A stretch of DNA of 18,549 bases from Patescibacteria group bacterium (GCA_018813025.1 JAHJCL010000013.1:1-18549), one strand, 5' to 3'. Positions 3,942 through 18,549 are shown, counted from the stretch's first letter. Numbers and translations are program-made. The notes: generated from the sequence alone by a model not told the origin.

Positions 3942-4601
3942 TTAATTCTTTGTCAATTTTTTTACTATCCTTTTAATTCTCCAGTCCTTGTAAAAATCGT
4001 CGTCAAAAATTAAACGATTTAATAAAACTTTTCTTCTTACTGCCGGATCTTTTAATTCTTTAATTGGGCTAAGGCGTTTTAAAAAAATCGGCAATAAAGA
4101 TAATTGGACTAATTGACCCACTGAATTTGATAAACCGAATTTATTACCCCAATAAAAGACTAAAACCAGCATAACAATAGTTCCAATAGATAAATTCCAA
4201 ATAATTCCTAATAAAAGGAAGGGAATTAAACTAAATTTAAAAACAACCGGCGAAAAAGCATATAAAGCACCGCCGAAAGTTCCTATTCCTCGGCCTCCGT
4301 TAAATTTTAAAAATAAAGACCAATTGTGGCCGACAACAGCTGCCACTCCGCATAATACCTGTATTGAATCCGGCTGACCATAATACTGAGCTAATCTGAC
4401 AGCCAGATATCCTTTTAAAATATCTAAAAGACCGGTTAAAGCTCCTTGCCAAATACCTATATTTTTAAAAACATTTGAACCAGATGTTTTCCTCCAACCA
4501 ATTTCCAATATGTCCTTTTGAACTGAAAGTTTAGTTATAATATGACCAGACGGAAAAGAGCCTAAAAGATAAGATAAAATAATGAAAAAAATATTTAACA
4601 T
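3942..4601 (-). CDS. plsY: PlsY-family glycerol-3-phosphate acyltransferase (acyl-phosphate dependent), divergent copy 1
   Basis: 219 aa, multi-TM. Matching elements: N-terminus ILSYLLGSFPSGHII, LLDILKG, and GHNWSLFLKFNGGRGIGT (compare GHxxPxxxxFxGGKGxAT). The glycine-rich GSGNxGATN loop is degenerate (GWRKTSGSNVFKN). Confidence 0.8.
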   Translation of the reverse strand: MLNIFFIILSYLLGSFPSGHIITKLSVQKDILEIGWRKTSGSNVFKNIGIWQGALTGLLDILKGYLAVRLAQYYGQPDSIQVLCGVAAVVGHNWSLFLKFNGGRGIGTFGGALYAFSPVVFKFSLIPFLLLGIIWNLSIGTIVMLVLVFYWGNKFGLSNSVGQLVQLSLLPIFLKRLSPIKELKDPAVRRKVLLNRLIFDDDFYKDWRIKRIVKKLTKN

Positions 4602-4635
4602 AATGATTTGAAGATAATAAATATTGAAATTAGTA

Positions 4636-5430
4636 TTATCTAATTAATCCTTTTTCTATTTTTTCTTTGCCTTTTTGTTTGATAATTTTTACAAACTCTT
4701 TAACTAATGCTTTTACATCTTTAGTTTCTTCAGCGGCTGTACCAATAGATAAACAATCAGCTCCGGCCGCAACAACTTTACCGGCTTGTTCAGGAGTTCT
4801 AATTCCTCCACCAACAATATAAATAGCATCTATTGCTTTTCTGACAGTTGTTATCATCTCCAAAGGAATGTGATCAAAAGCAGCTGAGCCGGCATCGGTA
4901 AAGACCATTCTTCTACCAGCAAGCTGGGCTGAAAGAGCTAAAGCAGCTGCGAGTTTCGGCCTATTTCTGGGAACTAAATTGGCATCACCAACCCAGCCAG
5001 CAGTTCCTCCTGGTTCAACTAAAATATAACCTGTGGGCAAAGCTTCTATGCCCATTTTTTTAATCATCGGCGCTGACAGCATTTGAGCTTGAGAAATCCA
5101 ATAAGGATTTCTGGAATTCAATAAACTCATAAAAAACACAGCGTCGGCTGATGCCGAAATTGTAGCAATGTTTCCGGGAAATAAAACAATAGGAACATCT
5201 GTTTCTTTCTTAATTCCCTTAATCACTGAATCTAATAACTCGCCCTGCGCTCCAGTACTGCCACCAACCCCCAGAATATCAGTGCCGGCTTCAACTGCTA
5301 ATAAAGCTGTTTCAATAGCTTTTTGGGGCGTGGAATAATCACAGGGATCAATTAAAATAGATAGAATTGCTCCGTCCTTTTGAACCCTATCATTAATATA
5401 TTTTTCAACTTTTCCTATTAATGGAATCAT
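4636..5430 (-). CDS. Geranylgeranylglyceryl phosphate synthase (GGGPS/PcrB family)
   Basis: 264 aa with TIM-barrel GGGPS/PcrB hallmarks: ILIDP, DILGVGGS, PIVLFPGN, YILVEPGG, IVGGGIRTPEQA. The ATG at 5430 overlaps the upstream GGPPS stop (ATGA). Confidence 0.88.
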   Translation of the reverse strand: MIPLIGKVEKYINDRVQKDGAILSILIDPCDYSTPQKAIETALLAVEAGTDILGVGGSTGAQGELLDSVIKGIKKETDVPIVLFPGNIATISASADAVFFMSLLNSRNPYWISQAQMLSAPMIKKMGIEALPTGYILVEPGGTAGWVGDANLVPRNRPKLAAALALSAQLAGRRMVFTDAGSAAFDHIPLEMITTVRKAIDAIYIVGGGIRTPEQAGKVVAAGADCLSIGTAAEETKDVKALVKEFVKIIKQKGKEKIEKGLIR

Positions 5431-6524
5431 ATTTTTCTTGTAATTAAAAAATTAACGAATTCTTCCAACCTTTTTTTAGCCGGAGATTCAGGTAAAAGTT
5501 TCTCGGCTTCCTGCCAAGCATCTCCCATAATTTCTTTAGCTTTAGTTTGAGCATATTCCACACTGCCATATTTTTTAATTATAGCTATGGCTTCTTCTTT
5601 CTCTTTTATATCATCGGTATGCTTGTCCAATATTCCTATTAATCTGGCTTTATCTTCATCACTGGCTTTCTTTAGAGTATGAATTACCATTAAAGTTCTT
5701 TTACCTTCTTTAATATCATTGCCGAACACTTTACCGAATTTATCTCTTTCTTCTCCTTCAGAAATTATATCTAAAATATCGTCCTGAATTTGAAAGGCAA
5801 CTCCCATTGTCTCAGCTACTCTTCCAGCTGCCTCAACCACTTGATCGCTGCCACCGGATAGAATAACTGCTAATTTAGCCGACATTCTAGAGAGACAACC
5901 TGTTTTGTAAGCACACATTTGCAAATATTCATCTTCTTCAATATTAACTGCCTTACCATTGTGCCAAAAAATATCCGTGCCTTGACCAAGATGAATATTA
6001 ATCATCTCTTGCGCATAAGTTTCATAAGCTTTCTGTAAAATAACACAAGTAAAATTATCTTTGTTCTTGATTAAAGCCAGTAGTGGATAAAAATACATAA
6101 AATTCCCTGCATTAATAGCAACGTCAACACCAAAAACCTTATGAAGACATGGCTCATTTCTTCTTAATTCTCCCATATCTTCAATGTCGTCAACGATAAT
6201 ACTTCCGTTGTGAATTATTTCCGGAATCATTACAATATCTTGGACTTTTTCCAAATCACCTCCAACAGCTTCAACAATTAGTAAAAATAAAACTGGTCGC
6301 CATCTTTTACCACCCCTATCTATAAAATTCCAAATTGGTTTCATGAATACCGCATCGGCCGCGTCCGGACTATAAGTATAACGAGGGTCGCCGAAAACAA
6401 ACTTTAGCCACTCTTGCGTGGCTTTTCTGGGAAGATATTTCTCAATAATTTTATCTATCTCCGGTTTTTTTGATTCTAGATACTCGATAAATTCTTTTGA
6501 CTTACTGTCTTGATTATCAGGCAT
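5427..6524 (-). CDS. Polyprenyl (geranylgeranyl) diphosphate synthase
   Basis: 365 aa trans-isoprenyl diphosphate synthase. First Asp-rich motif: IVDDIEDMGELRRNEP. Second: FQIQDDILD. It also has GKRWRP and GNDIKEGKRT. The HNGSIIVDDIED / INAGNFMYF context resembles type III GGPP synthases. Confidence 0.85.
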   Translation of the reverse strand: MPDNQDSKSKEFIEYLESKKPEIDKIIEKYLPRKATQEWLKFVFGDPRYTYSPDAADAVFMKPIWNFIDRGGKRWRPVLFLLIVEAVGGDLEKVQDIVMIPEIIHNGSIIVDDIEDMGELRRNEPCLHKVFGVDVAINAGNFMYFYPLLALIKNKDNFTCVILQKAYETYAQEMINIHLGQGTDIFWHNGKAVNIEEDEYLQMCAYKTGCLSRMSAKLAVILSGGSDQVVEAAGRVAETMGVAFQIQDDILDIISEGEERDKFGKVFGNDIKEGKRTLMVIHTLKKASDEDKARLIGILDKHTDDIKEKEEAIAIIKKYGSVEYAQTKAKEIMGDAWQEAEKLLPESPAKKRLEEFVNFLITRKI

Positions 6525-6545
6525 AATAAATTTTGAACTATTAAT

Positions 6546-6565
6546 AGTATATTATATAGTATACT
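6546..6565. promoter_or_regulatory. Near-palindrome in the divergent GGPPS/DGGGPS promoter region (candidate operator)
   Basis: agtatattatatagtatact matches its own reverse complement at 18 of 20 positions. It contains TAGTATA twice and sits in the 103-nt divergent intergenic region. The AT-rich background makes chance occurrence plausible. Confidence 0.25.
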
Positions 6566-6627
6566 GGTTATTGTTCTAAGAGAAAAGATAGCTTGTATTT
6601 TTAGCTATTTTGTCTATTATTGAGCTT

Positions 6628-7422
6628 ATGAATCCTTATCTTGAGATTATTCGTCCGCAAACATCATTAATAGCCGGATTAGGAGCAGTAGTGGGTACTA
6701 TTATTGCCGGTGCCCCATTTTGTACTGCTTCTTTATATATTTTCTTAACTGTTTTCCTTATGACCGGAGCCGGTATGGTAATCAATGATTATTATGATTT
6801 GGAAATAGATAAAATTAATGCTCCTCATAGACCATTACCCAGTCAAAGAATGTTACCCAGGACAGCTTTTGGCTACGGATTATTTTTATTCATTTCCAGT
6901 CTTGTTTTTGGAACTTTCACTAATGTTTATTGTTTTGCTTTAGCTCTTTTCAACAGCTTAATTGAATTCTTTTACGCCAAAACATTTAAAAAATGGTGGC
7001 TGTTGGGAAATATTATGGTCAGTTGGTTAGCTGGCTCTGTTTTTTTGTTCGGCGCTATGGTCACCTTTGATTTCAGATTAGTGGGAATTTTGTCCGGACT
7101 GGCTTTTTTAGCCAATATGGGCAGAGAAATTTTCAAAACCATTGAAGATGTTAAAGGAGATCGGGCAATGAATTTGGATACGCTTCCCATCGGTTCGGGA
7201 ATCAAAAATGCCAAAGAAATAGCACGAGGATTTATTTGTTTGGCAATTATCCTTTCTCCTATTCCTTATTTATCCGGACTTTTAAAAAGTACTTACCTAC
7301 AAATTGTTTTAATCAGCGACTTAATTTTTTTCTACTCTCTTTTTCAATCTCCCACTAAGGCTAAAAATTTAGCCAAAATTGCTATGTTTATAGTTCTTTT
7401 AGCAATTTTAGTCAGCTTCTAA
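6628..7422 (+). CDS. UbiA-family prenyltransferase, digeranylgeranylglyceryl phosphate synthase-like
   Basis: About 8 predicted TM segments. UbiA Asp-rich motif: NDYYDLEIDKINAPHRPLPS. Second motif region: KTIEDVKGD. ATG at 6628 gives MNPYLEIIRPQ, typical of the family. The ORF track's alternative TTG start is at 6610. Confidence 0.85.
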   Translation: MNPYLEIIRPQTSLIAGLGAVVGTIIAGAPFCTASLYIFLTVFLMTGAGMVINDYYDLEIDKINAPHRPLPSQRMLPRTAFGYGLFLFISSLVFGTFTNVYCFALALFNSLIEFFYAKTFKKWWLLGNIMVSWLAGSVFLFGAMVTFDFRLVGILSGLAFLANMGREIFKTIEDVKGDRAMNLDTLPIGSGIKNAKEIARGFICLAIILSPIPYLSGLLKSTYLQIVLISDLIFFYSLFQSPTKAKNLAKIAMFIVLLAILVSF

Positions 7423-7428
7423 ATGAAA

Positions 7429-8550
7429 TTATCCAAAACTGGTTCCACTTCTCTGAAGGATTGAAAACAACTTGAATAATTGCCAAGCTCGACTTCTTAA
7501 TTTCGACTTAGAAAAAAACTTAACGAGTCCGGACAAATTCTTCAAATCCAGAGGATTTTTGTTTTCTGAAATATCAGCAATCTCATTCAAAACTGAATTG
7601 GGCAAACTGTACAAAACTTTTTGAGCATACATTAGGTCTTCACTGAAATAGGACATTGATTTTAATTTCTTTTCAAAGAGATGACTGGAATTATTAAGAA
7701 TTGCTTCAGTCGCCAATCTTCCTGAAATCATCGCGTTGTTTATTCCTCCGCCTAAAACCGGGTCAATCAAGGCTCCGGCATCACCAACCAAAAAAACATT
7801 ATCTTTGAATAATTTAATCCTCATTCCGCCATAAGTAATTAATCCGCTCTTATTAGTCAAAAGTTTGTAATTGCCGAATTCAGGAACAACGGTCGTGTCC
7901 ATAAAATATTTAAATCTTTTATCTAACTCTTTATACCCACCCAAACCAATATTAGCTGTATGTTTTGATTTAGGAAAAATCCAAACATATCCATCAGGGT
8001 ATTTCTCTTTATCAAAATATAATCTTATCGTTGATATTAGTACCTCTTTTTCAAGTTCAACTAAATATTCGTAAGTCGGTAAAATCCCGAATTTGCCTCC
8101 AAAGAGCTTAGTTCTGGTTACTGAAAGGGGACCATCAGCGCCAATAATATATTGAGCTCTGTAAATGTCTCCTTTTTCGGTATAGACTGCCCAGCAGTCT
8201 TTTTCCCTTTTTAAATCAACTACTTTGCTTTCTAATTTTATTTCTGCCTGACACTGCGTTGCTAAAAACTTCTCGAAAGCAACCCTATCTAAAACATAAC
8301 CGGCGTCTTGGCCCGGCAAAATAATTTTTTTACCTGAAGGAACAATTACCTCAATATTTTGAATAAACGTAGAAATCCAAGCAGGGTCAGGGGTGATTCC
8401 CTGTATTGATAAAGCTATCTGACTTAAACCCTCGCCACACTGGACTGGTTTACCAATTTCTTTCTTCTTGTCCAGAATTAAAGAATTATCCAAATACTTA
8501 CCGGCAATCAACCCCGCTGGACCGGCTCCAATAATAATCGTCTTAAACAT
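7429..8550 (-). CDS. FAD-dependent geranylgeranyl reductase (digeranylgeranylglycerophospholipid reductase-like)
   Basis: 373 aa. Motifs: N-terminal IIIGAGPAGLIAG dinucleotide fold, YVWIFPK, and GDAGALIDPVLGGGINNAMISG. The start overlaps the plsY copy 2 stop by 8 nt (ATGTTTAA). Confidence 0.85.
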   Translation of the reverse strand: MFKTIIIGAGPAGLIAGKYLDNSLILDKKKEIGKPVQCGEGLSQIALSIQGITPDPAWISTFIQNIEVIVPSGKKIILPGQDAGYVLDRVAFEKFLATQCQAEIKLESKVVDLKREKDCWAVYTEKGDIYRAQYIIGADGPLSVTRTKLFGGKFGILPTYEYLVELEKEVLISTIRLYFDKEKYPDGYVWIFPKSKHTANIGLGGYKELDKRFKYFMDTTVVPEFGNYKLLTNKSGLITYGGMRIKLFKDNVFLVGDAGALIDPVLGGGINNAMISGRLATEAILNNSSHLFEKKLKSMSYFSEDLMYAQKVLYSLPNSVLNEIADISENKNPLDLKNLSGLVKFFSKSKLRSRAWQLFKLFSILQRSGTSFG

Positions 8551-9208
8551 TATTTTGATTTTTTGTTTTTATATTTTTTATACCTCTATAATACCATTTA
8601 GGTATTTCACCTTTAAGAGCTGGAATAACACTTGGCCACTGTTTAATGAAAATTGGAATCGCCATTAAAAGACAAACCAAAAAATAATTGGGAGATAATG
8701 AATAACCAATTAAAGGCAGAAGAAAATTACCCATGAACTGGCCGAAGAAAAAACTTTGAGTAGCTAAAATAAAAACAATAGCCATAGCCGCCCAAGGTAA
8801 AAGCAACCAATTGAAATCTAAAACCCACAATATTCCGATTAAAGAGGCTTGTGCTTTGCCTCCAGAAAGTTTACCATCCTTAATTTTGAAATAAATAGAA
8901 AAACAATGCCCTAGAACTACTCCGAATCCGGCTATGGTCATAACTAAAATTTGATTGTACCCGAGGTAAGAAAAATATTTCGCAATTAATACAGGGAGAG
9001 CTCCTTTGGAGGCATCAATAAAAGTTGTGATTAGAAAAAGTAATGGTTTGTCGGTAACTCGCATTACGTTTAAAGCACCTACATTTTTGGTTTCTTCTTC
9101 CCTAATATCTTTATTTGAATATTTCTTTACAATCAAATAGGCGGTTGGAAAAGAACCTAAAAAATAAGATGAGACGAAGAACAAAATCGAATAAATTATA
9201 TTGTTCAT
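8543..9208 (-). CDS. plsY: PlsY-family acyltransferase, divergent copy 2
   Basis: Multi-TM. Matching elements: YFLGSFPTAYL, NVGALNVMR (partial GSGNxGATNVxR), FIDASKG, and GHCFSIYFKIKDGKLSGGKAQAS (GGKG motif with an insertion). ATG at 9208 is preferred. The ORF track's start at 9220 is a TTG. Confidence 0.8.
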   Translation of the reverse strand: MNNIIYSILFFVSSYFLGSFPTAYLIVKKYSNKDIREEETKNVGALNVMRVTDKPLLFLITTFIDASKGALPVLIAKYFSYLGYNQILVMTIAGFGVVLGHCFSIYFKIKDGKLSGGKAQASLIGILWVLDFNWLLLPWAAMAIVFILATQSFFFGQFMGNFLLPLIGYSLSPNYFLVCLLMAIPIFIKQWPSVIPALKGEIPKWYYRGIKNIKTKNQNNV

Positions 9209-9216
9209 TTCTTTAA

Positions 9217-10917
9217 TCAATAATTTCCATCTATTATATCCCAGGAAGCGATTAAACTTCCACTGACAATACTTTGGTCAAAAACTGAAGCTATAGAATT
9301 GATGAAAGAAACTTCAGCTTTTATTTCTTTCAATCTTTTTTTCAAAGATTCTGCCTGTTCAATATTATTTTTATGAGCAATAACTACTCTGATCTTTTGA
9401 CCATTTTGTCTTGATTTTTTAGTTTGCTTTTTAATTTCTATAAAAATTGCTTCTGATGCGTCTTGGGCTCTAAAACAAGAACTAATCCTAACCCATTGGC
9501 CTCTTCTGAGTCCAACCAACGGCTTAAAACCAATACTTTGCCATCTTTTAGCCCATTTTATAATAGGACTCCTGATAAAATTGTCTTGTTCTACTTTGGC
9601 TAAAAGTGGCAAAAATAGATAGGTCTGAATTTCCCGAGCTTTTTTATCAAGAATTTTAATAATCTCTCTTATTTCCCTCTGTTCTTTAATTAATCCAATG
9701 GCTTTTAAAATTAATAAACCCTGACCCGAACTGATATTTAAAGAATCAAAAACATAAACCCTGTAGGGGTCAACGAGTTTTAAGCGAAACTCCATGGCTT
9801 TTTGATAATTCAAATTAAATTTAGAAGAGCTGACAATAATCAACAATCTTTTAAATTTTTCTAACTGTTGATTGCAAACACTGATAAAATCATCCGGATC
9901 AGACAAAGAAGAAATAACTTTAATATAGTACCTCTCAATAATCTTATCAGTCAAATTTGAACTATTATCAGTAATGATACCAATTGAAAAATTACGCAAT
10001 GACTCTTCTCCGGCTGATTCTCTCGCCATATCTTCAACTCTCATCTCCTTGATTTCTCCAGCTGATCTAATAATTTCTTTTGCTTCTTCAATAGTGTCAG
10101 TATGAATATGAACTTTCATTCGATTACCAAAACTTACAACATCTAAACTATTACCGAATCGACTTAATTTTTCTTTAATGACCTTTTCAGTCATTTTCGG
10201 GTTTTCTATTAAAGCAACTATTTCATAGCGATTAGAAATGGTTTGAATAAATCTCCTAACCTCTTCTGACGGTCTGTCCATAATAATTTTAACTTTTTCT
10301 TCCTGAACTCCGTCTAAAGCATCAAGATAGCTTTCTAAAATGATTAAGAAACCCATCCCGCCGGCATCAACGACATTGGCCTTTTTTAATAACTCCATCT
10401 GGTTCTGCGTTTCTACTAAAGCTTTTTTAGCTTCTTGAATTGCTGTTTGAAACAAAATAATAATATCTTTTTCGGTTGAAACTCCTTGTTCAAAAGATTG
10501 AGCGGTTGCTTCAATCACATCTAAAATAGTTCCTTTTTTCGGGGACTGAATGCTATCTCTGGCCCTTTGATAACCTTTTCGAAAATACTCGGCCAGTTGC
10601 TGCGGTCCGACAGAATTTTCTTTTCCTAAAGAAGAAAAAAATCCAGCTAAAAAACCGGTATAAATAATACCGGCATTACCCTGGGCGGTGGTCATTGCCC
10701 CAGTTAAAATGGCATTAGAAATATCGTTTAAACTATTAAAATTTTTATTTTGAATTTCACTTCGAATCCCAGCCAGAGTCTTAGCTAAATTAGTCCCTGT
10801 GTCTTGATCGGGTACCGGGAAAACATTGATTTTATTTATCTCCTCCTTATCTCTTTCAACTCGTTCATAGGATAGAAGCATCATTTTCTTTAATTCCTTG
10901 GGAGTCAAATAGTCCAT
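9217..10917 (-). CDS. fakA: Fatty acid kinase FakA-like protein (DAK2/DhaL domain plus DegV-like C-terminal domain)
   Basis: 566 aa. The N-terminal DAK2 signature is INVFPVPDQDTGTNLAKT. The C-terminal ~250 aa align by eye with the stand-alone DegV ORF at 14540-15421: IGIITDNSSNLTDKIIERY vs IGLIVDEGADLTPEIIEKY, VFDSLNISSGQGLLILKA vs IIDSLSAVCGEGLLALKA, and GQKIRVVIAH vs GKKIKVFISH. Confidence 0.8.
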   Translation of the reverse strand: MDYLTPKELKKMMLLSYERVERDKEEINKINVFPVPDQDTGTNLAKTLAGIRSEIQNKNFNSLNDISNAILTGAMTTAQGNAGIIYTGFLAGFFSSLGKENSVGPQQLAEYFRKGYQRARDSIQSPKKGTILDVIEATAQSFEQGVSTEKDIIILFQTAIQEAKKALVETQNQMELLKKANVVDAGGMGFLIILESYLDALDGVQEEKVKIIMDRPSEEVRRFIQTISNRYEIVALIENPKMTEKVIKEKLSRFGNSLDVVSFGNRMKVHIHTDTIEEAKEIIRSAGEIKEMRVEDMARESAGEESLRNFSIGIITDNSSNLTDKIIERYYIKVISSLSDPDDFISVCNQQLEKFKRLLIIVSSSKFNLNYQKAMEFRLKLVDPYRVYVFDSLNISSGQGLLILKAIGLIKEQREIREIIKILDKKAREIQTYLFLPLLAKVEQDNFIRSPIIKWAKRWQSIGFKPLVGLRRGQWVRISSCFRAQDASEAIFIEIKKQTKKSRQNGQKIRVVIAHKNNIEQAESLKKRLKEIKAEVSFINSIASVFDQSIVSGSLIASWDIIDGNY

Positions 10918-10925
10918 AGTTTAAA

Positions 10926-11588
10926 TTAGCGAATTTTTTCCTCGAATTCTTTCAAAATTTTAGTGGCTATGTCTTTTCCGCCAAGACCGAAGGCAATACC
11001 CACGGCTATAACTATTGTTCCGATAAAACCGATAAAAATAGTCATAATAAGGTCTGGTGCAATTTGAAGTTGGTAGAGAATTGCCAATATTGATAAACTC
11101 CAAATTATCCAGCGAATAATCCGACCTAAAAAACGGGAATAAGTAATTTTTTCTTTTTCCAAAACAGCAATCATTATTTTCTGGGAGAAATCAGAGATAA
11201 AAACCGCGGTAATAAAAATTAAAGAAGCAATAAAAATGTTAGGGAAATAGGCAATAGCTTGAGCTAAAAGTTGACTAAATTGAAGTAAACCGATAATCTC
11301 GGCCGATGCCATTAAAAAAAGAAGGGTTACAAAACAGCTGGTGATACGACCGAAAAATTTAGGAACATTAAAATAGGTATCGGAAGTCATTAATCTTTCT
11401 TCCAAATCCATTCTTTTAATGGCCTGTCCTAATTGAATTTTTTCTAAAAAACGGCTGACTAAGTTGCCAACCCATTTTGAGACAAAAAGACCGATAATAA
11501 AAATCCAAATTGCCCAAATAAGGTTGGGTAGGTTTTCAACGAAACTCTCTAAAAATAATTGTAAAAAACTTTCTGAAGTAATTAACAT
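10926..11588 (-). CDS. Integral membrane protein of unknown function (about 5 TM, MscS-N-terminal/'TM helix repeat'-like)
   Basis: 220 aa with five hydrophobic segments and a short charged C-terminus (KILKEFEEKIR). It is wedged between carS (20-nt gap) and fakA (8-nt gap). I recognised no catalytic motif. Confidence 0.6.
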   Translation of the reverse strand: MLITSESFLQLFLESFVENLPNLIWAIWIFIIGLFVSKWVGNLVSRFLEKIQLGQAIKRMDLEERLMTSDTYFNVPKFFGRITSCFVTLLFLMASAEIIGLLQFSQLLAQAIAYFPNIFIASLIFITAVFISDFSQKIMIAVLEKEKITYSRFLGRIIRWIIWSLSILAILYQLQIAPDLIMTIFIGFIGTIVIAVGIAFGLGGKDIATKILKEFEEKIR

Positions 11589-11608
11589 ATCATTTAATTA
11601 ATTTTATC

Positions 11609-12178
11609 TTACCATTGGCTCTTAGACAAGCCTAATTTATAGCCAATTTGAGTGGCGCCAACGTGTAGAATAAAAGTTAAGACAAAAAGAACTAACCAGA
11701 CAGATAAATTAATTTGAATTTTAGAAAAAACAAACAGAAAGAGAGCCGCACCAAGAACATAATTAATTTGGTCAAAAGGAACAAACTTCGCTCCCGGTTT
11801 TAAATCTAAACGCCTTTTAATAAAAGCGAAGAATAAATCGCCGAAAATTGCTCCGAGGGTCATTGATAAAGCAAAATTCCAGATATTGATATTGGAATAA
11901 TTTATAATACTGATGCTTTGCATTAACGGACAATTAATGAAAAGCCATTTTTGATAAAAAATAATCATTATTCCGATTGACGAACCTACAATTATACCTC
12001 TCCAAGTTTTATGATCTCCCAACAAGGGTTTGCCCATAAATTGTTTACCTGCGTCAATTGGTTTAGCTAAAAATTTAAATATCCCTAGAGTAGCTGACAA
12101 TGAAGGAGTCATATTTGTCAAATAAGCGGGAAAAAAGAAATAGAAACAAGGTAGGATTAGATTAACAAAATTATCCAT
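11609..12178 (-). CDS. carS: CDP-archaeol synthase (CarS, DUF46 family; CDP-2,3-bis-O-geranylgeranyl-sn-glycerol synthase)
   Basis: 189 aa, 5-TM. CarS family signatures are present: PIDAGKQFMGKPLLGDHKTWRG, GAIFGDLFFAFIKRR, VPFDQINY, and a C-terminal ...LSKSQW. The size matches archaeal CarS. Confidence 0.85.
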   Translation of the reverse strand: MDNFVNLILPCFYFFFPAYLTNMTPSLSATLGIFKFLAKPIDAGKQFMGKPLLGDHKTWRGIIVGSSIGIMIIFYQKWLFINCPLMQSISIINYSNINIWNFALSMTLGAIFGDLFFAFIKRRLDLKPGAKFVPFDQINYVLGAALFLFVFSKIQINLSVWLVLFVLTFILHVGATQIGYKLGLSKSQW

Positions 12179-12221
12179 TTCAAAAATTGATTATTAGTTA
12201 TTTTAGATGTAAAATTATCCA

Positions 12222-12884
12222 ATGAAAGCTGACTTGCACGTTCATACTAATTATTCTTACGATAGCATATCTTCTCCGCAGGAAATAGTCAAAGCAGCTC
12301 TTCAAAAAGGGCTTGACTGTATTGCTATTTGCGACCATGGAGAAATAAATGGAGCAATTGAAGCAATTAAAGCGGCCTTTGACAAGCCGATTCTGGTTAT
12401 CCCGGGAATTGAGATAAAAAGCCAAGAAGGCGATATTTTGGGTTTAAATGTTAAAACAATAATTCCTAACGGACTTTCAGTCTTGGAAACAATTTTAGAA
12501 ATTAAAAAAGCTGGTGGACTGGTGGTGATACCGCATCCATTCGGACTTTGCTGTTCTTTTGACGGTAATTTAAAAAATATCATTGAACATATTGATGCTA
12601 TAGAAGTTTTAAACGCCAATATTTTTAAGAATAATAACCAAAAAGCTCTATCTTTGGCTAAGGAACATAATTTTGCAATAACCGCTGGTTCTGATGCTCA
12701 CAGCTCAATGTTTGTTGGTGAAGCCTTTTTAGAAATTCCGGGAGAAAAATTATCAATCAGCCAGATATTCGAACAAATTAAGAATAAAAGATGTAAGCCA
12801 TCAGGAAAAGAAACCAATATCTTTTTAAAAGGAATTGCTTTCTTACAGAGAAGTTGGGCAAAAATAAAGTATTACACAAAATAA
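12222..12884 (+). CDS. PHP-domain metal-dependent phosphoesterase
   Basis: 220 aa. PHP motifs: DLHVHTNYSYDS, ICDHG, VVIPHPF, EVLN, GSDAHS. It is divergent from carS (43-nt gap) and lies 6 nt upstream of the CDP-alcohol phosphatidyltransferase. Confidence 0.85.
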   Translation: MKADLHVHTNYSYDSISSPQEIVKAALQKGLDCIAICDHGEINGAIEAIKAAFDKPILVIPGIEIKSQEGDILGLNVKTIIPNGLSVLETILEIKKAGGLVVIPHPFGLCCSFDGNLKNIIEHIDAIEVLNANIFKNNNQKALSLAKEHNFAITAGSDAHSSMFVGEAFLEIPGEKLSISQIFEQIKNKRCKPSGKETNIFLKGIAFLQRSWAKIKYYTK

Positions 12885-12890
12885 CAACCC

Positions 12891-13487
12891 ATGTTATCAG
12901 AAAAAAGAGAACAATTTAAAAAATTAGAAGCAATAGTCGGTGATTTTTTTTCTAAGTTTTTGACTGCTAATCAATATTCTGGTTTAGCCATTTTAATGGC
13001 TTTGTTTTTTTTAAAATTTATTATTTCCGGCAATCTCAAAGTTGCTTTAATTTTTTTAATAACAACTTCTTTTTTAGATTTTGTTGATGGTGCTGTGGCG
13101 CGCAAAACCAACACTGCTTCCAATAAAGGAGCTTATTTGGATACAATTTTAGACCGCTATGTTGAGGCAATCGTTTTGTTCAGTTTCTTATTTCTACCCT
13201 TACCTAAACTATTGTTTCCCAGTTATGTCTGGATTTTATTTACCCTACTCGGTTCTTTTATGACCACTTATGCTAAAGCAGCTGGAAAAGAAAAAGAAAT
13301 ATTAAAAACCGAATTAAAAAAGGGGTTGATTGGCCGGGGAGAAAGAATGATTTTAGAATCTTTAGCCATATTATTCGGTATCTTTAATTTTAATTGGACG
13401 CTATTTTGTATTATTATTTTAGCTATTCTGTCTAACATCACTGCTTTTCAAAGAATTTACCTTGTTTTGAATAATGAAAATATTTAA
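12891..13487 (+). CDS. CDP-alcohol phosphatidyltransferase (archaetidyl/phosphatidyl head-group transferase; head group undetermined)
   Basis: 198 aa, multi-TM. It has an exact D-G-x2-A-R-x8-G-x3-D-x3-D signature: DFVDGAVARKTNTASNKGAYLDTILD. Confidence 0.9.
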   Translation: MLSEKREQFKKLEAIVGDFFSKFLTANQYSGLAILMALFFLKFIISGNLKVALIFLITTSFLDFVDGAVARKTNTASNKGAYLDTILDRYVEAIVLFSFLFLPLPKLLFPSYVWILFTLLGSFMTTYAKAAGKEKEILKTELKKGLIGRGERMILESLAILFGIFNFNWTLFCIIILAILSNITAFQRIYLVLNNENI

Positions 13488-14496
13488 TATTTCAGGACTC
13501 AAAAAAACTTATAGTCTTCTCAGGAAAACTTCTCGAATACAAGGACCTGATATCGATCAAAAATTAATAGACCAGATAATGTATAGTTTTGAGGCACTGC
13601 CACCATTTGGCAAAGAATACTGGTGGTTTCTTTTTTTAGATAATGATGGACCAAAACCAATTCAACTAATGTTAATGATTTGTCGAAAATATGGCAAAGA
13701 AATGTGGATTGATGATACTAAGATGACACTGAAAGATTTAGGGAAAGATGGAATAAAATCAGCTGTAACCGGCTGGCTTTACGATGGAAACAAGATGATC
13801 AACCTGGGCAACACCAATGGAATTGTCAAAATAACTGATAAAAAAATTATTACTGAAATTGCCGGCAATAAATTGATTTTTGAAGGCAGTTTTCCTTTTT
13901 ATAAATTGACAGTGGGTGATATTATTGATTTAAACATCAGTCACGAAAATACTTTAGTCAAAAGAAACAAAGAAGCTTACGGCATTTTCTGGCCACCATT
14001 CGGAGTCGGTTATTTTAATCTTTATCCCGATGTTTCCGGAACTATTTTTGGAAAAACATTTCAAGGAACCGGCCATTTACAAAAAGTTGTCGGTATCGCT
14101 CCTCACTTTCCTTATAACTGGGTCAGAATAATTTTTAAAAACGGATCTATGTTAAGGTTTTCCGATATTCGGCCTAAAAAAATACATGTTGAGAGATCGA
14201 TAGATTTTTATGATAATAATGAAAATAAAATTATTAAATTCAGCAAACCGAGTTTAAAAATATCTCGATCTGACAATTCTTTAATCTGGACATTGGAAGG
14301 ACAGGACAAAAACAATTACGCTAAAGTTGTTTTGGAAGCCTACGCTAAAAAACAATTTGTTATGAAAGGCGGAGGATCATTAACTTATGTTGAGTATTGT
14401 GTTATTCCTAAAGAATTGATTTTAAAAATTAAAGAAAAAACCATCACCTTAAATGATTTAGGTGATGGTGTGGGAACTTTAGAAGACGCCTATTAA
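13474..14496 (+). CDS. Hypothetical soluble protein, function unknown (weak tocopherol-cyclase/CrtC-like pattern, unverified)
   Basis: 340-aa ORF whose start overlaps the preceding transferase gene by 14 nt. No TM segment or signal peptide. The composition is rich in W, F, Y and G and looks beta-rich. Patches GKEYWWFLFL, GIAPHFPYNWVRIIF and C-terminal GVGTLEDAY recall lipocalin-like isoprenoid cyclase/hydratase families, but only from memory. Confidence 0.7.
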   Translation: MKIFNISGLKKTYSLLRKTSRIQGPDIDQKLIDQIMYSFEALPPFGKEYWWFLFLDNDGPKPIQLMLMICRKYGKEMWIDDTKMTLKDLGKDGIKSAVTGWLYDGNKMINLGNTNGIVKITDKKIITEIAGNKLIFEGSFPFYKLTVGDIIDLNISHENTLVKRNKEAYGIFWPPFGVGYFNLYPDVSGTIFGKTFQGTGHLQKVVGIAPHFPYNWVRIIFKNGSMLRFSDIRPKKIHVERSIDFYDNNENKIIKFSKPSLKISRSDNSLIWTLEGQDKNNYAKVVLEAYAKKQFVMKGGGSLTYVEYCVIPKELILKIKEKTITLNDLGDGVGTLEDAY

Positions 14497-14539: not shown

Positions 14540-15421
14540 TTATTCGGCATACCAAGCAAGACCGATAAGTCCCGGGCCAGCGATGCTTCCAACGACATAA
14601 TCAGCTAAAGAAATTAAAACAACTTCTGTATTGTCTAAATTTTCTTTAATTAACTTTCCTAATTTTTCAGCTCCTTCTAAATTAATAATATGAGAGATAA
14701 AAACTTTAATCTTCTTTCCTTCTTGGCGAGGTTTTTTTGTTTTAGACTCAAGTTCTTTAAACAAAGCTTCAGGCACATCCTTAACTCCAGTTTTAACTCC
14801 AATTGGCTTAAGTACGCCTTCTTTAAATCCTAAAATTGGCCTAACGCCAAAATTAGCTGCTTTTCTAATCCAACTGGCTACCATCGGAGAAATACGGCCG
14901 GCATGTTCCAACCATTTAGGATCTTCGAGAATCGCATAAAGATGAATTCTAGATGGCATTTCTTTTAATTCTTTAACAATCATTTCAATATCGTTTCCGT
15001 TATTGATCAATTCAGCGGCTTTTAAGGCTAAAAGTCCCTCACCGCAGACTGCACTTAGAGAATCTATAATAAAAACATTGTTTTTCTGCTCTTCAGGCAG
15101 AAAACTAATTGCTTGAATTGCTGAGTTGTATGTCCCTGATAGTTTAGAGGTAACGGTAGTGCAGATGATCTTATCAAATTTTTCTAATTGCGCTTTAAAA
15201 ATATCTAAAAAATCTTTAGGCGATGGTTGGGATGTTTTACAGAATATTTTTACCCCTCTTTTATCTGCTTCTCGCATTTTGTGAAAAATACTTTCGCCAG
15301 GTAATTCCATTATTTCCGACGGCCACTCTACTTTTAAAGGAACAACTGCAATCTGATATTTCTCTATTATTTCTGGGGTCAAATCAGCCCCCTCATCAAC
15401 TATTAATCCAATTTTATTCAT
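14540..15421 (-). CDS. DegV family fatty-acid-binding protein (FakB-like)
   Basis: 293 aa. DegV hallmarks: N-terminal KIGLIVDEGADL, KTSQPSP, TVTSKLSGTYNSA, IIDSLSAVCGEG, and the C-terminal ISHIINLEGAEKL. Confidence 0.9.
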   Translation of the reverse strand: MNKIGLIVDEGADLTPEIIEKYQIAVVPLKVEWPSEIMELPGESIFHKMREADKRGVKIFCKTSQPSPKDFLDIFKAQLEKFDKIICTTVTSKLSGTYNSAIQAISFLPEEQKNNVFIIDSLSAVCGEGLLALKAAELINNGNDIEMIVKELKEMPSRIHLYAILEDPKWLEHAGRISPMVASWIRKAANFGVRPILGFKEGVLKPIGVKTGVKDVPEALFKELESKTKKPRQEGKKIKVFISHIINLEGAEKLGKLIKENLDNTEVVLISLADYVVGSIAGPGLIGLAWYAE

Positions 15422-15468: not shown

Positions 15469-15542
15469 TGGTGGACCCAGGGAGAATCGAACTCCCATTT
15501 CCACAATGCGAATGTGGCGTCTTGCCATTGGACTATAGGCCC
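15469..15542 (-). tRNA. tRNA-Ala (anticodon CGC), CCA encoded
   Basis: The hand-folded minus-strand sequence is GGGCCTA-TA-GTCC-AATGGCA-AGAC-G-CCACA-TTCGCAT-TGTGG-AAAT-GGGAG-TTCGATT-CTCCC-TGGGTCC-A-CCA. It has a 7-bp acceptor stem with the G3:U70 Ala identity pair and a canonical T-loop. Confidence 0.9.
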
Positions 15543-15543
15543 G

Positions 15544-15616
15544 TCAGGGTGGAGAGATTCGCACTCTCGATCTCCGGCACCCGAGGCCGGCGTCTTAACT
15601 ACTGGACTACACCCTG
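15544..15616 (-). tRNA. tRNA-Pro (anticodon CGG), no encoded CCA
   Basis: The hand-folded sequence is CAGGGTG-TA-GTCC-AGTAGTTA-AGAC-G-CCGGC-CTCGGGT-GCCGG-AGATC-GAGAG-TGCGAAT-CTCTC-CACCCTG-A. C1:G72 and A73 are bacterial Pro features. The D-loop (AG instead of GG) and T-loop (TGC instead of TTC) are atypical. Confidence 0.8.
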
Positions 15617-15698: not shown

Positions 15699-17165
15699 TT
15701 AACTTACCCAATATTTCTGTTTAACCATTTCGTCTTTTTTGGTCTCAATCTTTTCTTTTTCCTGTTTGGCTTTCTGGGCTAACTCAATTAACTCTTTTTC
15801 AGACAATTGTCCCAATCTTTTAATTTCTTTTTCTAAGTCCTGCTTTTTATTATTGGAAGGATTATCTAAAACACTACCTAACAGAACATTTAGAATTTGC
15901 CCTATCTTCGGTCCGGGTTTTATATTTAAAATCTTAATTATGTCATTACCATCTAATTTTAACATCTTGGCAGAAATAGGATCATTAGACACTTTCTCAA
16001 TAATATATCTGAGATGCCTTAATTTATATGGCTCGGCCTTAGGACAACCGGAACCTATTCTATCTGCCATTCTCACTTGAATCAACTCTTCTATGCTTTC
16101 CTGTCCGACATTACAAAGTAATTTTCTGACTGACGACTCATTAACTTCATCAGGATGATAGTAAAAAAGATGGTATCTGACCAAATTGGTAATTTTCTCA
16201 ATATCTTTTTTGGGAAATTTTAATCGTTCTAAAATCTTTTGTGTCATCCTGGCTCCCACTACTTCATGACCATAAAAAGTGGCATCTTTGCCTTTACCTC
16301 TCTTAGTAATTGGCTTACCTACGTCGTGCAGTAGAGCAGCTATTCTGACATATCGATTAAAATTCTTTTTGACCGCATATTCCAAAGATTTCAAAGAATG
16401 GTCGTAGCAATCATAAATATGATGCTTATTCTGACTTACCTTATATCCTTGCTCCAACTCGGGAATAACATATTTTAAAAGATTTAATTCTCTTAACAGC
16501 TCGATTCCTTGAGCTGCATTTTCACTATCTATAATTTTAATCAATTCGTCTCTGATTCTCTCGGCTGAAACAATTTTTAAAGAATCAGAATTTTTTTTGA
16601 TTGCTTGAGATGTTTTTTCTTCAATAGAAAAACCTAACCTTATAGCTAATCTGACAGCTCTAATCATCCTTAAAGCATCCTCGTTAAATCTTTTTAAAGG
16701 ATCGCCAACTGTCCTAATTATTTTTTTCTTCAAATCTTCTTGACCTTTAAATGGATCAATAAGTTTAGAAGTTTGGGATTTGGAAATCGGAATTTCCAGT
16801 GCCATTGCGTTAACTGTAAAATCTCTTCTGGATAAATCTTCCTCTAAATTCTTGGCGAACTTAACCGAATCAGGATGTCTTTGATCTCCATACCGGGCTT
16901 CGGATCGATAAGTTGTTATTTCAATTTCCTTTAAATTAGATTTCTTACTCTGGGTTTGGACACTAACGGTAAAAAATTTGTTTTCGTAAAAACTTTTAGG
17001 AAATATTTCTTGTATTTGATTGGGTTTAGCGCTGGTGGCAATATCCCAATCGTTGGGAGTTATTTTTAATAAAAAATCACGGACACAACCGCCAACGACA
17101 AAAGCTTCAAAATCAGCCTTTTGAAGTTTTGAGATAATAGATTTAATTTCTTTGGGAATAAGCAT
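15699..17165 (-). CDS. cca: CCA-adding enzyme (class II tRNA nucleotidyltransferase with HD domain)
   Basis: 488 aa. Motifs: head domain FVVGGCVRDFLL...DWDIAT, RDFTVNAMA, and HD domain AALLHDVGKP...GHEVVGA. There is a K/E-rich C-terminal extension. Confidence 0.9.
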   Translation of the reverse strand: MLIPKEIKSIISKLQKADFEAFVVGGCVRDFLLKITPNDWDIATSAKPNQIQEIFPKSFYENKFFTVSVQTQSKKSNLKEIEITTYRSEARYGDQRHPDSVKFAKNLEEDLSRRDFTVNAMALEIPISKSQTSKLIDPFKGQEDLKKKIIRTVGDPLKRFNEDALRMIRAVRLAIRLGFSIEEKTSQAIKKNSDSLKIVSAERIRDELIKIIDSENAAQGIELLRELNLLKYVIPELEQGYKVSQNKHHIYDCYDHSLKSLEYAVKKNFNRYVRIAALLHDVGKPITKRGKGKDATFYGHEVVGARMTQKILERLKFPKKDIEKITNLVRYHLFYYHPDEVNESSVRKLLCNVGQESIEELIQVRMADRIGSGCPKAEPYKLRHLRYIIEKVSNDPISAKMLKLDGNDIIKILNIKPGPKIGQILNVLLGSVLDNPSNNKKQDLEKEIKRLGQLSEKELIELAQKAKQEKEKIETKKDEMVKQKYWVS

Positions 17166-17232
17166 AACTTTATTTTAAACCGAAATTTTTCTTTTTTCAA
17201 TTTACTTGTTAAAATATCTGAATAATAATCAA

Positions 17233-18549
17233 ATGATTAAAAATAAGAAAACATTAACGGTTATAATATTTTTCTTATTTTTGTTTCTATTTTTACCTTT
17301 TGCAGCAAATGGCTCATATTATTGCGACTTCGGAGGATGCGCTCCTGACCCGATAATAATGGAATGTACCAGATTAACTTGCGTAAACGGTGATACTTGT
17401 TATTACACGCCTGATGGATGCGTCCCTCCTTCTTATAATACCTGTGTATACAGTAATGAAGATCCTGATAAACCTTCTTCTGAAGAATGTTATGATGTGG
17501 TCTGTAGTGATAACGGATGGGACCAAATTTCTAATAATGCTAATTGTCCTTCAGGGGAAATATGTAATTCTTCCGGTTTCTGTGAATTAGCTGATCCCAA
17601 TCCTAATCCCAATCCTAACCCCACTCCAAGTACAGGTTTTTGCAATGCGTCAATTATTCCCTGTGGAACAACAGGGACCCCGACTTGTCAATTTTGCCAC
17701 ATTTTTGTTCTTCTGAACAATATCATAACTTATACTTTAACCTGTCTTACTCCAATTGCCGGAGTATTAATGATAGTGATTGGAGGTTTTATATTACTGA
17801 CTGCTGGTAACAACAGAAAAAGATTTGAAGAAGCTAAAAAAATAATTACTGCAACTGTAATTGGCATAGTAATTATATTGACTGCTTGGTTATTATTGAA
17901 TACTTTTTTAACTGCAATCGGCGTAGCAAATTGGACCGGGTTGGGAAGCTGGTGGAGGATAGAATGCGTCTCATTGCCGGAATATTATTTAACTCTTGCT
18001 GCCAATGACTTTGGTGGAACAACTAACCCGACGCCTGGCATCTATCAATATCAAGAGAATAACGAAGTTCAAATGACCGCTTATCCTTTATCCGGATATA
18101 GTTTTGAATATTGGGAATTGGATGGGGTTAACCAAGGAAGTGATAATCCCATCACCTTTTTAATGGATAAAGATTATATTTTGAAAGCTAATTTCAAAGT
18201 TTCAGACGCAAAATTGGCTTGTGATTCCACATGTATTGATAAATACGGCTCAACCTCCTTCGGAACATGTAGCCCGGGTAACATATGTCTACCGGGTAAA
18301 GTTTCCGTGGGTCAGGACGGCTGCTCTTCTGGGGCATGCTGCTGTTTGGAAGTCATTCAAACTTGCTCCGACGGTACACCTTACAGTTCTTGTTTGCCGA
18401 CCAAACCCCTATATTGCAGCGGAGGAACGCTGATCAGCAACTGCTCCCTTTGCGGTTGTTCATCCGGGACTTGCCAATCTGACGGTACGTGTAAAACAAC
18501 AACAACGACGACGTGTAACTCGGCCTGCAAGAATCAGTTAGGTTTGTCT
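17233..18549 (+). CDS. Secreted/membrane-anchored Cys-rich surface protein with a T4SS-pilin (TrbC/VirB2)-like domain; 3' partial
   Basis: This ORF is not in the supplied track because it runs off the window. I translated it by hand from ATG 17233 in frame 1 and found 439 codons with no stop. Domains in order: signal peptide MIKNKKTLTVIIFFLFLFLFLPFAA; a 12-Cys module; a PNPNPNPNP linker (17596-17622); a CPR-type pilin-like two-TM hairpin IIPCG...CQFCHIFVLLNNII...GGFILLTAGNN...IIGIVIILTAWLLLN (about 17638-17940); an InlB-B-repeat-like beta module YYLTLAAN...GYSFEYWELDG...LKANFK (about 17983-18198); and further Cys-rich modules. Confidence 0.85.
   Translation, partial: MIKNKKTLTVIIFFLFLFLFLPFAANGSYYCDFGGCAPDPIIMECTRLTCVNGDTCYYTPDGCVPPSYNTCVYSNEDPDKPSSEECYDVVCSDNGWDQISNNANCPSGEICNSSGFCELADPNPNPNPNPTPSTGFCNASIIPCGTTGTPTCQFCHIFVLLNNIITYTLTCLTPIAGVLMIVIGGFILLTAGNNRKRFEEAKKIITATVIGIVIILTAWLLLNTFLTAIGVANWTGLGSWWRIECVSLPEYYLTLAANDFGGTTNPTPGIYQYQENNEVQMTAYPLSGYSFEYWELDGVNQGSDNPITFLMDKDYILKANFKVSDAKLACDSTCIDKYGSTSFGTCSPGNICLPGKVSVGQDGCSSGACCCLEVIQTCSDGTPYSSCLPTKPLYCSGGTLISNCSLCGCSSGTCQSDGTCKTTTTTTCNSACKNQLGLS

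Follow-up and report, generated by a model that had tools for sequence, protein, structure and literature searches.

A candidate archaeal-type ether-lipid gene cluster interleaved with fatty-acid salvage genes in a bacterium of the candidate phyla radiation

INTRODUCTION

The 'lipid divide' that separates Archaea from Bacteria is a central question for early cell evolution and for the origin of eukaryotes. The only natural candidates for a mixed membrane have so far been bacteria of the Fibrobacteres–Chlorobi–Bacteroidetes (FCB) group, which are without the CDP-archaeol synthase CarS, and a small number of archaea that carry genes of bacterial type. In the FCB group and Cloacimonetes, group II geranylgeranylglyceryl phosphate synthase (GGGPS), digeranylgeranylglyceryl phosphate synthase (DGGGPS), geranylgeranyl reductase (GGR) and prenyl synthases are found beside the genes for fatty-acid lipids, there is no glycerol-1-phosphate dehydrogenase (G1PDH), and a mixed membrane has been proposed (Villanueva et al., 2020; PMC7852524). 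The GGGPS and DGGGPS of Cloacimonetes yield ether lipids when expressed in Escherichia coli (PMC7852524). Here we analyse a stretch of 18 549 nt from a Patescibacteria group bacterium (GCA_018813025.1, JAHJCL010000013.1:1-18549; the whole stretch is referred to below as the window), in which six genes for predicted enzymes of archaeal-type ether-lipid synthesis are set among genes for fatty-acid utilization. The host belongs to the candidate phyla radiation (CPR), a group generally described as being without lipid synthesis (10.1101/465690; 10.1101/2022.04.20.488981).

The window shares with the FCB/Cloacimonetes system its genes for group II GGGPS, for DGGGPS and GGR homologues and for a prenyl synthase, their proximity to fatty-acid lipid genes and the lack of G1PDH, and a mixed membrane is proposed here as it was there, but the two differ in several respects. 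Cloacimonetes have no CarS and are assumed to use the bacterial enzymes CdsA and PgsA (PMC7852524), whereas the window has a CarS-like gene and a gene resembling archaetidylinositol-phosphate (AIP) synthase. Unlike those of the FCB group, the genes of the window are packed into a single island among FakA and PlsY genes, with which they are interleaved, the nearest archaeal relatives seen are from DPANN archaea (Aenigmarchaeota) rather than from the TACK archaea reported for FCB (PMC7852524), and the host is an ultra-small CPR bacterium. Set against the canonical archaeal pathway (Methanothermobacter thermautotrophicus, Methanocaldococcus jannaschii, Aeropyrum pernix), every step from geranylgeranyl diphosphate (GGPP) to the head group has a homologue in the window whose best match is the characterized archaeal enzyme; the canonical pathway has G1PDH, whereas the window is without it and has its genes clustered in operons with FakA and PlsY-like genes. 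The PcrB protein of Bacillales, a heptaprenylglyceryl phosphate synthase (HepGPS), is likewise a member of the PF01884 superfamily in a bacterium, but its distance from the window enzyme is large (see below), and the PcrB system has, to our knowledge, no DGGGPS, CarS or GGR partners. An E. coli strain engineered to have a heterochiral membrane also combines GGPP synthase (GGPPS), GGGPS, DGGGPS and CarS-type activation with bacterial acyl lipids (Caforio et al., 2018; PMC5889666); that strain is synthetic, whereas the window would be a natural, evolutionarily conserved counterpart.

Among CPR bacteria, one Parcubacteria genome with GGGPS and DGGGPS has been mentioned in passing (PMC7852524). 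The GGGPS of Parcubacteria DG_74_3, probably the genome in question, shares 69% identity with that of the window. Parcubacteria also appear in the table of the survey of G1PDH, GGGPS and DGGGPS over bacterial phyla by Coleman et al. (PMC6431249).

RESULTS

Six genes matching archaeal lipid enzymes

A first-pass annotation of the window had placed six ether-lipid genes on it from the sequence alone, and open reading frames are present at exactly those coordinates:

4636-5430, minus strand: group II GGGPS, which would form the first ether bond; PF01884, 174 bits
5427-6524, minus strand: trans-prenyl diphosphate synthase, probably a GGPP (C20) synthase; PF00348 (polyprenyl_synt), 227 bits
6628-7422, plus strand: UbiA-family protein, probably a DGGGPS, which would form the second ether bond; UbiA profile, 124 bits
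7429-8550, minus strand: FAD-dependent GGR, which would saturate the isoprenoid chains; PF22578 (GGR_cat)
11609-12178, minus strand: CarS-like CDP-archaeol synthase (cytidylyltransferase); PF01864, 101 bits (cutoff 22)
12891-13487, plus strand: CDP-alcohol phosphatidyltransferase; PF01066 (CDP-OH_P_transf), 59 bits

The motifs named in the same annotation could be read in the translations: DDIED and DDILD in the product of 5427-6524, NDYYDLEIDKIN in the UbiA protein (6628-7422), GDHKTWRG and FGDLFFAFIKRR in CarS (11609-12178), and, in the product of 12891-13487, DGAVARKTNTASNKGAYLDTILD, which is an exact instance of DGx2ARx8Gx3Dx3D. The NCBI annotation already names the CarS and GGGPS genes. 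The proteins were scanned against the Pfam and NCBIfam profiles, and structural comparison was by sequence searches of all solved PDB structures.

The GGGPS scored above the cutoffs of both NCBIfam models (NF003198, 300 bits, cutoff 247; TIGR01769, 205 bits, cutoff 161.55) and matched the hexameric group II enzyme of M. thermautotrophicus (4mm1) with 248 bits and 51% identity. The PcrB/HepGPS structures 1viz, 3vzx and 4nae gave 29-36 bits and the HepGPS model NF003197 gave 28 bits (cutoff 260), which places the protein outside the heptaprenyl PcrB clade. For the prenyl synthase, the best PDB match was the GGPPS of Pyrococcus horikoshii (1wy0, 166 bits), followed by other GGPP synthases, among them the human one at about 115 bits. 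It has Gly at position -5 from the first DDxxD, where type I archaeal GGPPS has an aromatic residue, and its motifs HNGSIIVDDIED, NFMYF and HLGQGTDIFW can be aligned with those of the type III GGPPS of humans. The product is probably C20 (GGPP), because these type III motifs match residues that we take to be the ones capping the C20 chain in the yeast and human GGPPS structures.

The gene for the UbiA-family protein may start at ATG 6628 (the NCBI call, giving 264 aa) or at TTG 6610. The three NCBIfam models that it matched best are all of the DGGGPS type (253, 217 and 174 bits). Its alignment with M. jannaschii DGGGPS (6m31, 158 bits) spans the whole protein, and the structure in second place is the chlorophyll synthase ChlG with 44 bits. 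The models for quinone and haem prenyltransferases scored 31 (ubiA_proteo), 45 (cyoE) and 28 bits (MqnP), and no such enzyme was among its PDB matches at E<=1e-3; an assignment to the quinone clade is thus at odds with the scores. The GGR exceeded the cutoff of TIGR02032 (166 against 158.8 bits) and matched the digeranylgeranylglycerophospholipid reductase of Thermoplasma acidophilum (3oz2, 109 bits), in an alignment that keeps the segments CGEGLS and GYxWxFP; it would act on lipids of the digeranylgeranylglyceryl phosphate (DGGGP) type.

The sole PDB match of the CarS-like protein was A. pernix CarS (5guf), over the full length and with the LLGDxKTxxG and GDxxxxFxKRR segments kept; CdsA was absent from its PDB matches, and the CdsA family PF01148 scored 24 bits, so that this homologue, too, falls outside unrelated clades. 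The PDB matches of the CDP-alcohol transferase were weak (24-38 bits) but all to enzymes that use inositol phosphates (4mnd, 5d91, 4o6m and 6h53, that is, IPCT-DIPPS, the AF2299-PIPS fusion and Mycobacterium tuberculosis PgsA1). Its best NCBIfam model was NF040950 (AIP synthase, 126 bits), ahead of phosphatidylinositol-phosphate (PIP) synthase models (71-73 bits), pssA (33 bits) and pgsA (25 bits). The transferase thus appears closest to AIP and PIP synthases, and an inositol head group is the inference that we draw. At the level of profile and PDB searches it is confirmed that, for each of the six proteins, the match to an enzyme of archaeal lipid synthesis is by far the best.

Operon layout

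The six genes share the island with the following neighbours:

3942-4601, minus strand: PlsY-like membrane protein variant 1 (PlsY1), last of the GGPPS>GGGPS>PlsY1 string; PF02660, 106 bits
8543-9220, minus strand: PlsY-like membrane protein variant 2 (PlsY2), between FakA and GGR; PF02660, 108 bits
9217-10917, minus strand: FakA-like fatty acid kinase; Dak2, FakA-like_M and DegV (Pfam); TIGR03599, 247 bits, under cutoff
10926-11588, minus strand: small membrane protein 'MS' of 220 aa with two MscS-type transmembrane-helix repeats; PF05552, 64 bits
12222-12884, plus strand: PHP-family metal-dependent phosphoesterase; PHP and PHP_C (Pfam); NF038032, 84 bits (cutoff 80)
13474-14496, plus strand: uncharacterized 340-aa protein (ORF340), AttH/CrtC-like double beta-barrel fold in an AlphaFold2 (AF2) model
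14540-15421, minus strand: DegV/FakB fatty-acid-binding subunit; PF02645, 180 bits; TIGR00762, 191 bits (cutoff 99.7)

The genes CarS>MS>FakA>PlsY2>GGR follow one another on one strand, CarS first, with gaps of no more than 20 nt or with overlaps: the PlsY2 stop and the GGR start overlap by 8 nt, and FakA shares 4 nt with PlsY2, unless the start chosen by NCBI is used, which leaves 8 nt between the two. GGPPS and GGGPS overlap by 4 nt. On the other strand PHP, the CDP-alcohol transferase and ORF340 are coupled, the last two overlapping by 14 nt. It is visible in the coordinates that archaeal-type and bacterial-type genes are interleaved at the level of operons and are translationally coupled. 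A scan for promoters and terminators was uninformative in this AT-rich window (53 promoter-like sites against 43±7 expected).

Integrity of the contig and distribution among CPR bacteria

Proteins identical to those of the window are found under four NCBI metagenome-assembled genome (MAG) accessions, and matching gene order is found in independent assemblies, namely two Logan assemblies, one of them of another sequencing run, and a 256-kb ENA contig on which CarS is 84% identical. The order is conserved across the loci L003-L006, L013 and L012+L014. In the strings that follow, PT is the CDP-alcohol transferase and MS the small MscS-type membrane protein. On L013 (358 kb; GGGPS 75% identical) the order is CCA-DegV-x-PT-PHP-CarS-MS-FakA-GGR-UbiA-GGPPS-GGGPS-PlsY-NusA. 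L014 and L012 overlap and belong to a single JGI contig of 144 kb (Ga0315280_10000121), which reads DegV-PT-PHP-CarS-MS-FakA-PlsY-UppS-thiolase-DUF359-... and continues as BioY-FabG-FabZ-FabK-PlsC-AccC-BCCP-BPL-AccAD-GGR-UbiA-GGPPS-GGGPS-PlsY-NusA-ClpP. This is a lipid supercluster of about 30 kb, in which a block for fatty-acid synthesis (FAS), acetyl-CoA carboxylase (ACC) and PlsC directly abuts GGR-UbiA-GGPPS-GGGPS-PlsY, and the window looks like this supercluster minus the FAS/ACC/PlsC block. Chimeric assembly is excluded, because the order recurs across assemblies and lineages and because archaeal-type and bacterial-type genes overlap.

CarS and GGGPS occur together in every CPR contig with enough visible flank (the window, L005, L013 and L012+L014). 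A search with CarS gave 248 relatives; the best 120 of the 248 have identities of 49% or more, and where those 120 carry names, these are Patescibacteria, Paceibacterales, Nealsonbacteria and unclassified 'bacterium'. Because these best relatives are all either named as CPR or unclassified, the gene set appears to be a trait of the lineage and not a one-off transfer. Between the window and its CPR relatives housekeeping and lipid proteins have diverged in step (NusA 73-75%, GGPPS 67-71% and CarS 53-64% identity).

In the complete genomes of Nealsonbacteria (L007/L008, CP179890/CP179889) and in L009, PT-PHP-CarS-MS-FakA is followed by thiolase, FabG, FabZ, FabK and PlsC. The CarS proteins of Nealsonbacteria/L009 and of L014 are 52-53% identical to that of the window and 65-67% identical to each other. 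The FAS/ACC/PlsC block after FakA is present in Nealsonbacteria/L009 and L014, but not in the window, L005 or L013. Its occurrence in two lineages whose CarS is distant from that of the window therefore suggests loss in the window lineage, with the ether-lipid and salvage genes kept.

Some further features of these loci were noted. The Nealsonbacteria loci contradict the statement 'no lipid biosynthesis pathway' in the published Nealsonbacteria genome paper. The thiolase of the 144-kb contig is of archaeal type (NF004720; like the acetyl-CoA acetyltransferase of Methanothermococcus thermolithotrophicus). At L012 7050-8896 the positional equivalents of the DGGGPS and GGR genes (window 6628-8550) encode proteins only 23% and 34% identical to those of the window, and DGGGPS and GGR have therefore probably been replaced or have strongly diverged within the CPR; the two L012 genes are co-directional, whereas those of the window are convergent, and they still match DGGGPS-type and GGR-type models. 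At L013 1351-2457 (plus strand), in the place of ORF340 and beside the transferase, there is a gene for a membrane protein of PF04188 (like PIG-V/GPI mannosyltransferase 2), a neighbour that hints at glycosylated inositol lipids.

Relationship to DPANN archaea

The window GGGPS is 62-67% identical to homologues from Aenigmarchaeota (DPANN), which exceeds the 51% found with M. thermautotrophicus. For the prenyl synthase, a full-length comparison with an Aenigmarchaeota synthase (L011, 19051-20133) gives 51% identity, and the two share an N-terminal extension of about 60 aa, the type III motifs and the Gly at -5. In a neighbour-joining tree of 122 GGGPS sequences, which is rough and does not resolve the donor, CPR and Aenigmarchaeota form one group on a long branch. 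In the Aenigmarchaeota genome the genes for GGGPS, G1PDH and the prenyl synthase are dispersed among unrelated genes, G1PDH lying two genes from GGGPS. Judged by these comparisons, the CPR gene set shares ancestry with DPANN (Aenigmarchaeota) genes, a closeness that points to exchange of lipid genes between two episymbiotic radiations.

A possible stereochemistry switch in GGGPS was considered, at a site that reads FTDAGS in the window and YLEAGS in M. thermautotrophicus and that we take to be the glycerol-phosphate-binding strand. It was rejected as a CPR adaptation, because F/Y-T-D-A-G-S is also present in Aenigmarchaeota enzymes that have G1PDH next door.

G1PDH and the backbone

As the first-pass annotation had stated, the window has no G1PDH; no Fe-ADH_2/G1PDH domain was found in any scanned open reading frame. 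With no G1PDH detectable, the glycerol phosphate in the product may be of either stereochemistry. The GGGPS of the Aenigmarchaeota genome finds many CPR relatives, in contrast to the EgsA of the same genome, for which the search is described below.

Neighbouring genes

The bacterial surroundings described in the first-pass annotation were found as ClpP, trigger factor, a DHH/DHHA2 phosphoesterase, NusA, the class II CCA enzyme and DegV. Its FakA and PlsY neighbours are also there, as one FakA-like and two PlsY-like genes, but both PlsY proteins are atypical. Against TIGR00023 (cutoff 137) PlsY1 scored 106 bits and PlsY2 88 bits, their matches to the PlsY structure 5xj5 were 61 and 38 bits, and they are 29% identical to each other. 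In PlsY1, motif 1 (GSGNxGATNxxR) is swapped for GWRKTSGSNVFK, a version kept in every GGGPS-adjacent PlsY1 orthologue (L005, L006, L012 and L013). His92 is retained in both proteins.

In all CPR loci inspected the PHP gene adjoins those for the CDP-alcohol transferase and CarS, and its product is a candidate lipid head-group phosphatase. The place of the MS gene, with CarS on one side and FakA on the other, is likewise constant in the CPR loci examined (L005, L007, L009, L013 and L014).

ORF340 belongs to no Pfam or NCBIfam family and its own family is rare, with 86 representatives in 1.84 billion proteins. The AF2 model, built from a 38-sequence alignment of distant homologues, has a pLDDT of 92 and a pTM of 0.89, and Foldseek matched it to the AttH-like protein 2ich (E 4.6e-9), to the Fsa2/Phm7 pericyclases and to kievitone hydratase 7a0q (E 1.6e-5). 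Residues conserved in the family include Tyr305, Glu337 and a number of tryptophans. Of these fold relatives, kievitone hydratase hydrates a prenyl double bond, and Fsa2 and Phm7 are fungal pericyclases that form decalins; ORF340 might likewise hydrate isoprenoid chains, or it might act as a cyclase or bind lipids.

Beyond DegV, genes for tRNA-Pro(CGG) and tRNA-Ala(CGC) lie at 15469-15616 (minus strand), one C apart; CCA is not encoded in either of them, and the CCA-adding enzyme has its gene (15699-17165) immediately upstream of the pair. The tRNA-Pro has the C1:G72 pair and A73 attributed to it earlier, and an Rfam scan of the window found only these two tRNAs. From about 17200 to 18549 (plus strand) and past the end of the window runs a long frame for a Cys-rich protein with a signal peptide and a hydrophobic segment, followed by further domains; the hydrophobic segment resembles the TrbC/VirB2-type pilin (PF18895, T4SS_pilin) that relatives have in the corresponding place.

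DISCUSSION

Our working hypothesis, which we hold to be on balance probable, is that the island is a working archaeal-type isoprenoid ether-phospholipid pathway fused to fatty-acid salvage, and that it is an established, vertically diversified trait of a radiation of CPR bacteria. All steps of the pathway are deduced from homology. The prenyl synthase would supply GGPP as the C20 chain, the group II GGGPS would join it to glycerol phosphate with the first ether bond, and the UbiA-type DGGGPS would add the second chain. The CarS-like enzyme would then use CTP to give the CDP-activated diether, to which the AIP-synthase-like transferase would add a polyol phosphate, most likely myo-inositol-1-phosphate; the adjacent PHP phosphoesterase may strip the phosphate, and GGR would saturate the chains. 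In a parallel arm, FakA and FakB would make acyl-phosphate for the PlsY-like proteins, and the outcome would be a membrane of mixed isoprenoid-ether and acyl-ester lipids. The interpretation of the first-pass annotation as an archaeal-type ether-lipid pathway is thus supported by the homology evidence, the GGGPS, UbiA and CarS homologues lying outside the PcrB, quinone and unrelated clades and the contig being free of chimerism.

A number of observations weigh against this hypothesis. Several of the enzymes fall short of the strictest models: the prenyl synthase is under the cutoff of all NCBIfam equivalogs, the UbiA-family protein scores 253 bits against NF009521 (DGGGPS; cutoff 296), CarS 131.5 bits against the equivalog NF003114 (cutoff 148) and the CDP-alcohol transferase is under the cutoff of 180 bits for NF040950. 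Genes for the mevalonate and methylerythritol phosphate pathways are sparse in Parcubacteria (PMC6107057), which raises the question of the source of isopentenyl diphosphate, and the single lipidomic analysis of a CPR-enriched filtrate gave no bacterial ether lipids, the isoprenoid ether lipids that correlated significantly being assigned to archaea (10.1101/465690). No G1PDH domain was found in the CPR loci inspected (L005, L007, L009, L012, L013 and L014), and the search with Aenigmarchaeota EgsA gave 91 matches, of which all that are named are archaeal and none is on a long CPR contig. On these contig-level searches G1PDH is missing from the CPR relatives covered, a result to which we give moderate weight. 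The acyl arm has a difficulty of its own. The residues reported as essential for glycerol-3-phosphate (G3P) clamping and catalysis in Aquifex aeolicus PlsY are Ser35, Asn37, Thr41, Arg45, Lys104, His177 and Asn180 (PMC5700162). In PlsY1 the first five of these are replaced by Trp, Lys, Ser, Lys and Arg, respectively; PlsY2 differs by Thr at 35 and Leu at 41, and motif 3 (HxxN, the His177/Asn180 region) gave no alignment in either protein. Both thus depart from the canonical residue set, residues reported as essential for binding G3P being missing, and the acceptor may not be G3P, because the G3P-binding residues are altered and motif 3 is unaligned.

The absence of G1PDH need not be prohibitive. 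In E. coli engineered with archaeal lipid genes, G1P-type lipids were formed even with a construct from which araM, the gene for G1PDH, had been omitted, and GGGPS shows some promiscuity toward G3P (PMC7852524). CarS prefers DGGGP and other geranylgeranyl substrates to phosphatidic acid, but is lax as regards ether or ester bonds and a G1P or G3P backbone (PMC9385802). Because of the result with the araM-less construct and this laxity of GGGPS and CarS, the proposed scheme is plausible without G1PDH.

Some of the same observations could be accommodated in other ways. The genes might make a minor, specialized isoprenoid glycerolipid, for example an anchor for surface glycoconjugates akin to a phosphatidylinositol mannoside, a GPI-like archaetidylinositol or an analogue of the PcrB product. 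This we regard as unlikely but deserving serious attention: the head-group enzyme is of the inositol-phosphate type, a PIG-V-like mannosyltransferase stands beside the transferase in L013, with the lipid-modifying-looking AttH/CrtC-like protein in that position in the window, and acyl lipids have been seen in CPR-enriched samples (10.1101/465690), whereas the full set with GGR and CarS exceeds the needs of an anchor, the genes share operons with FakA and PlsY, which serve lipid synthesis in general, and those of L012 abut a whole FAS/ACC/PlsC block. A quite improbable alternative is that lipids of an archaeal host or of the environment are salvaged, remodelled or catabolized, CarS and the transferase re-activating archaetidic acid while GGGPS and DGGGPS run in reverse or are relics. 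That no G1PDH was found would suit such a role, and a catabolic one was suggested for G1PDH-less bacteria by Coleman et al. (PMC6431249). CPR bacteria are thought to scavenge lipids (10.1101/465690), and some Parcubacteria, Nealsonbacteria among them, live as epibionts on an archaeon, Methanothrix, but the growth of Nealsonbacteria on E. coli lysate speaks against a need for archaeal lipids (10.1101/2022.04.20.488981). The GGPP synthase is translationally coupled to GGGPS, which therefore argues for synthesis rather than salvage. We also know of no precedent for a reverse prenyl-transfer reaction, and this counts against salvage as well.

CarS, the transferase and PHP might instead be general head-group machinery acting on acyl phosphatidic acid, with CarS as a stand-in for CdsA and the ether-lipid genes as a later, minor add-on. 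The direct succession of PT-PHP-CarS-MS-FakA and thiolase/FabG/FabZ/FabK/PlsC in Nealsonbacteria and L009 would fit this, as would the fact that many CPR CarS homologues also match the CdsA family PF01148; but characterized CarS discriminates against phosphatidic acid, the CarS of Archaeoglobus fulgidus (AfCarS) fails to complement an E. coli cdsA mutant (PMC9385802), and CarS and GGGPS go together in the window, L005, L013 and L012+L014, which makes the proposal very improbable in our view. Finally, with GGGPS and GGPPS 51-67% identical to Aenigmarchaeota proteins, one could suspect that assembly or binning had joined DPANN archaeal DNA to a bacterial contig. This is effectively refuted by the identical proteins in four MAG accessions, by the same order on contigs of 144, 256 and 358 kb, by a uniform GC content of 0.30-0.37 across the cluster, by the overlaps of 4-8 nt between archaeal-type and bacterial-type genes and by the dispersal of these genes in the Aenigmarchaeota genome, where they are not clustered.

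It is also tempting to speculate beyond the hypothesis of a mixed pathway set out above. A dual lipid supercluster may be kept throughout a radiation of CPR bacteria, and in the window lineage, with the FAS block lost from it, the archaeal-type diether, which for want of a detectable G1PDH might be based on G3P, may be the only core made de novo, acyl chains being salvaged only. Accessory enzymes that archaea are not known to have could contribute new lipid types: ORF340 might hydrate isoprenoids, and the two PlsY-like proteins, with their altered glycerol-phosphate pocket, might for example acylate geranylgeranylglyceryl phosphate to ether/ester hybrids. We put this forward as a tentative and rather unlikely extension. 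If true, it would mean that a bacterium exists in nature whose membrane is hybrid or for the most part 'archaeal'.

The first-pass annotation had called the gene set 'not a characterized system'. This holds for experimental work, but published precedents exist in the FCB group and Cloacimonetes and in one Parcubacteria genome (PMC7852524). Full-text searches of the literature found no description of CarS, of an AIP-synthase-like enzyme or of this supercluster in CPR/Patescibacteria. To the known candidates for mixed membranes the locus adds a more complete archaeal-type pathway, with CarS and an AIP-synthase-like enzyme, the joining of this pathway, physically and in its transcription, to bacterial genes for acyl lipids, and a host group, the ultra-small CPR bacteria, that is usually called unable to make lipids. 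At about 10 kb the cluster is compact enough for direct expression in E. coli, by which the question of G1P or G3P could be put to a natural pathway without G1PDH. The finding bears on how archaeol-type biomarkers in groundwater and sediments are read, and for the biology of the organism it suggests, as far as gene content can tell, a natural mixed bacterial/archaeal membrane in a CPR bacterium.

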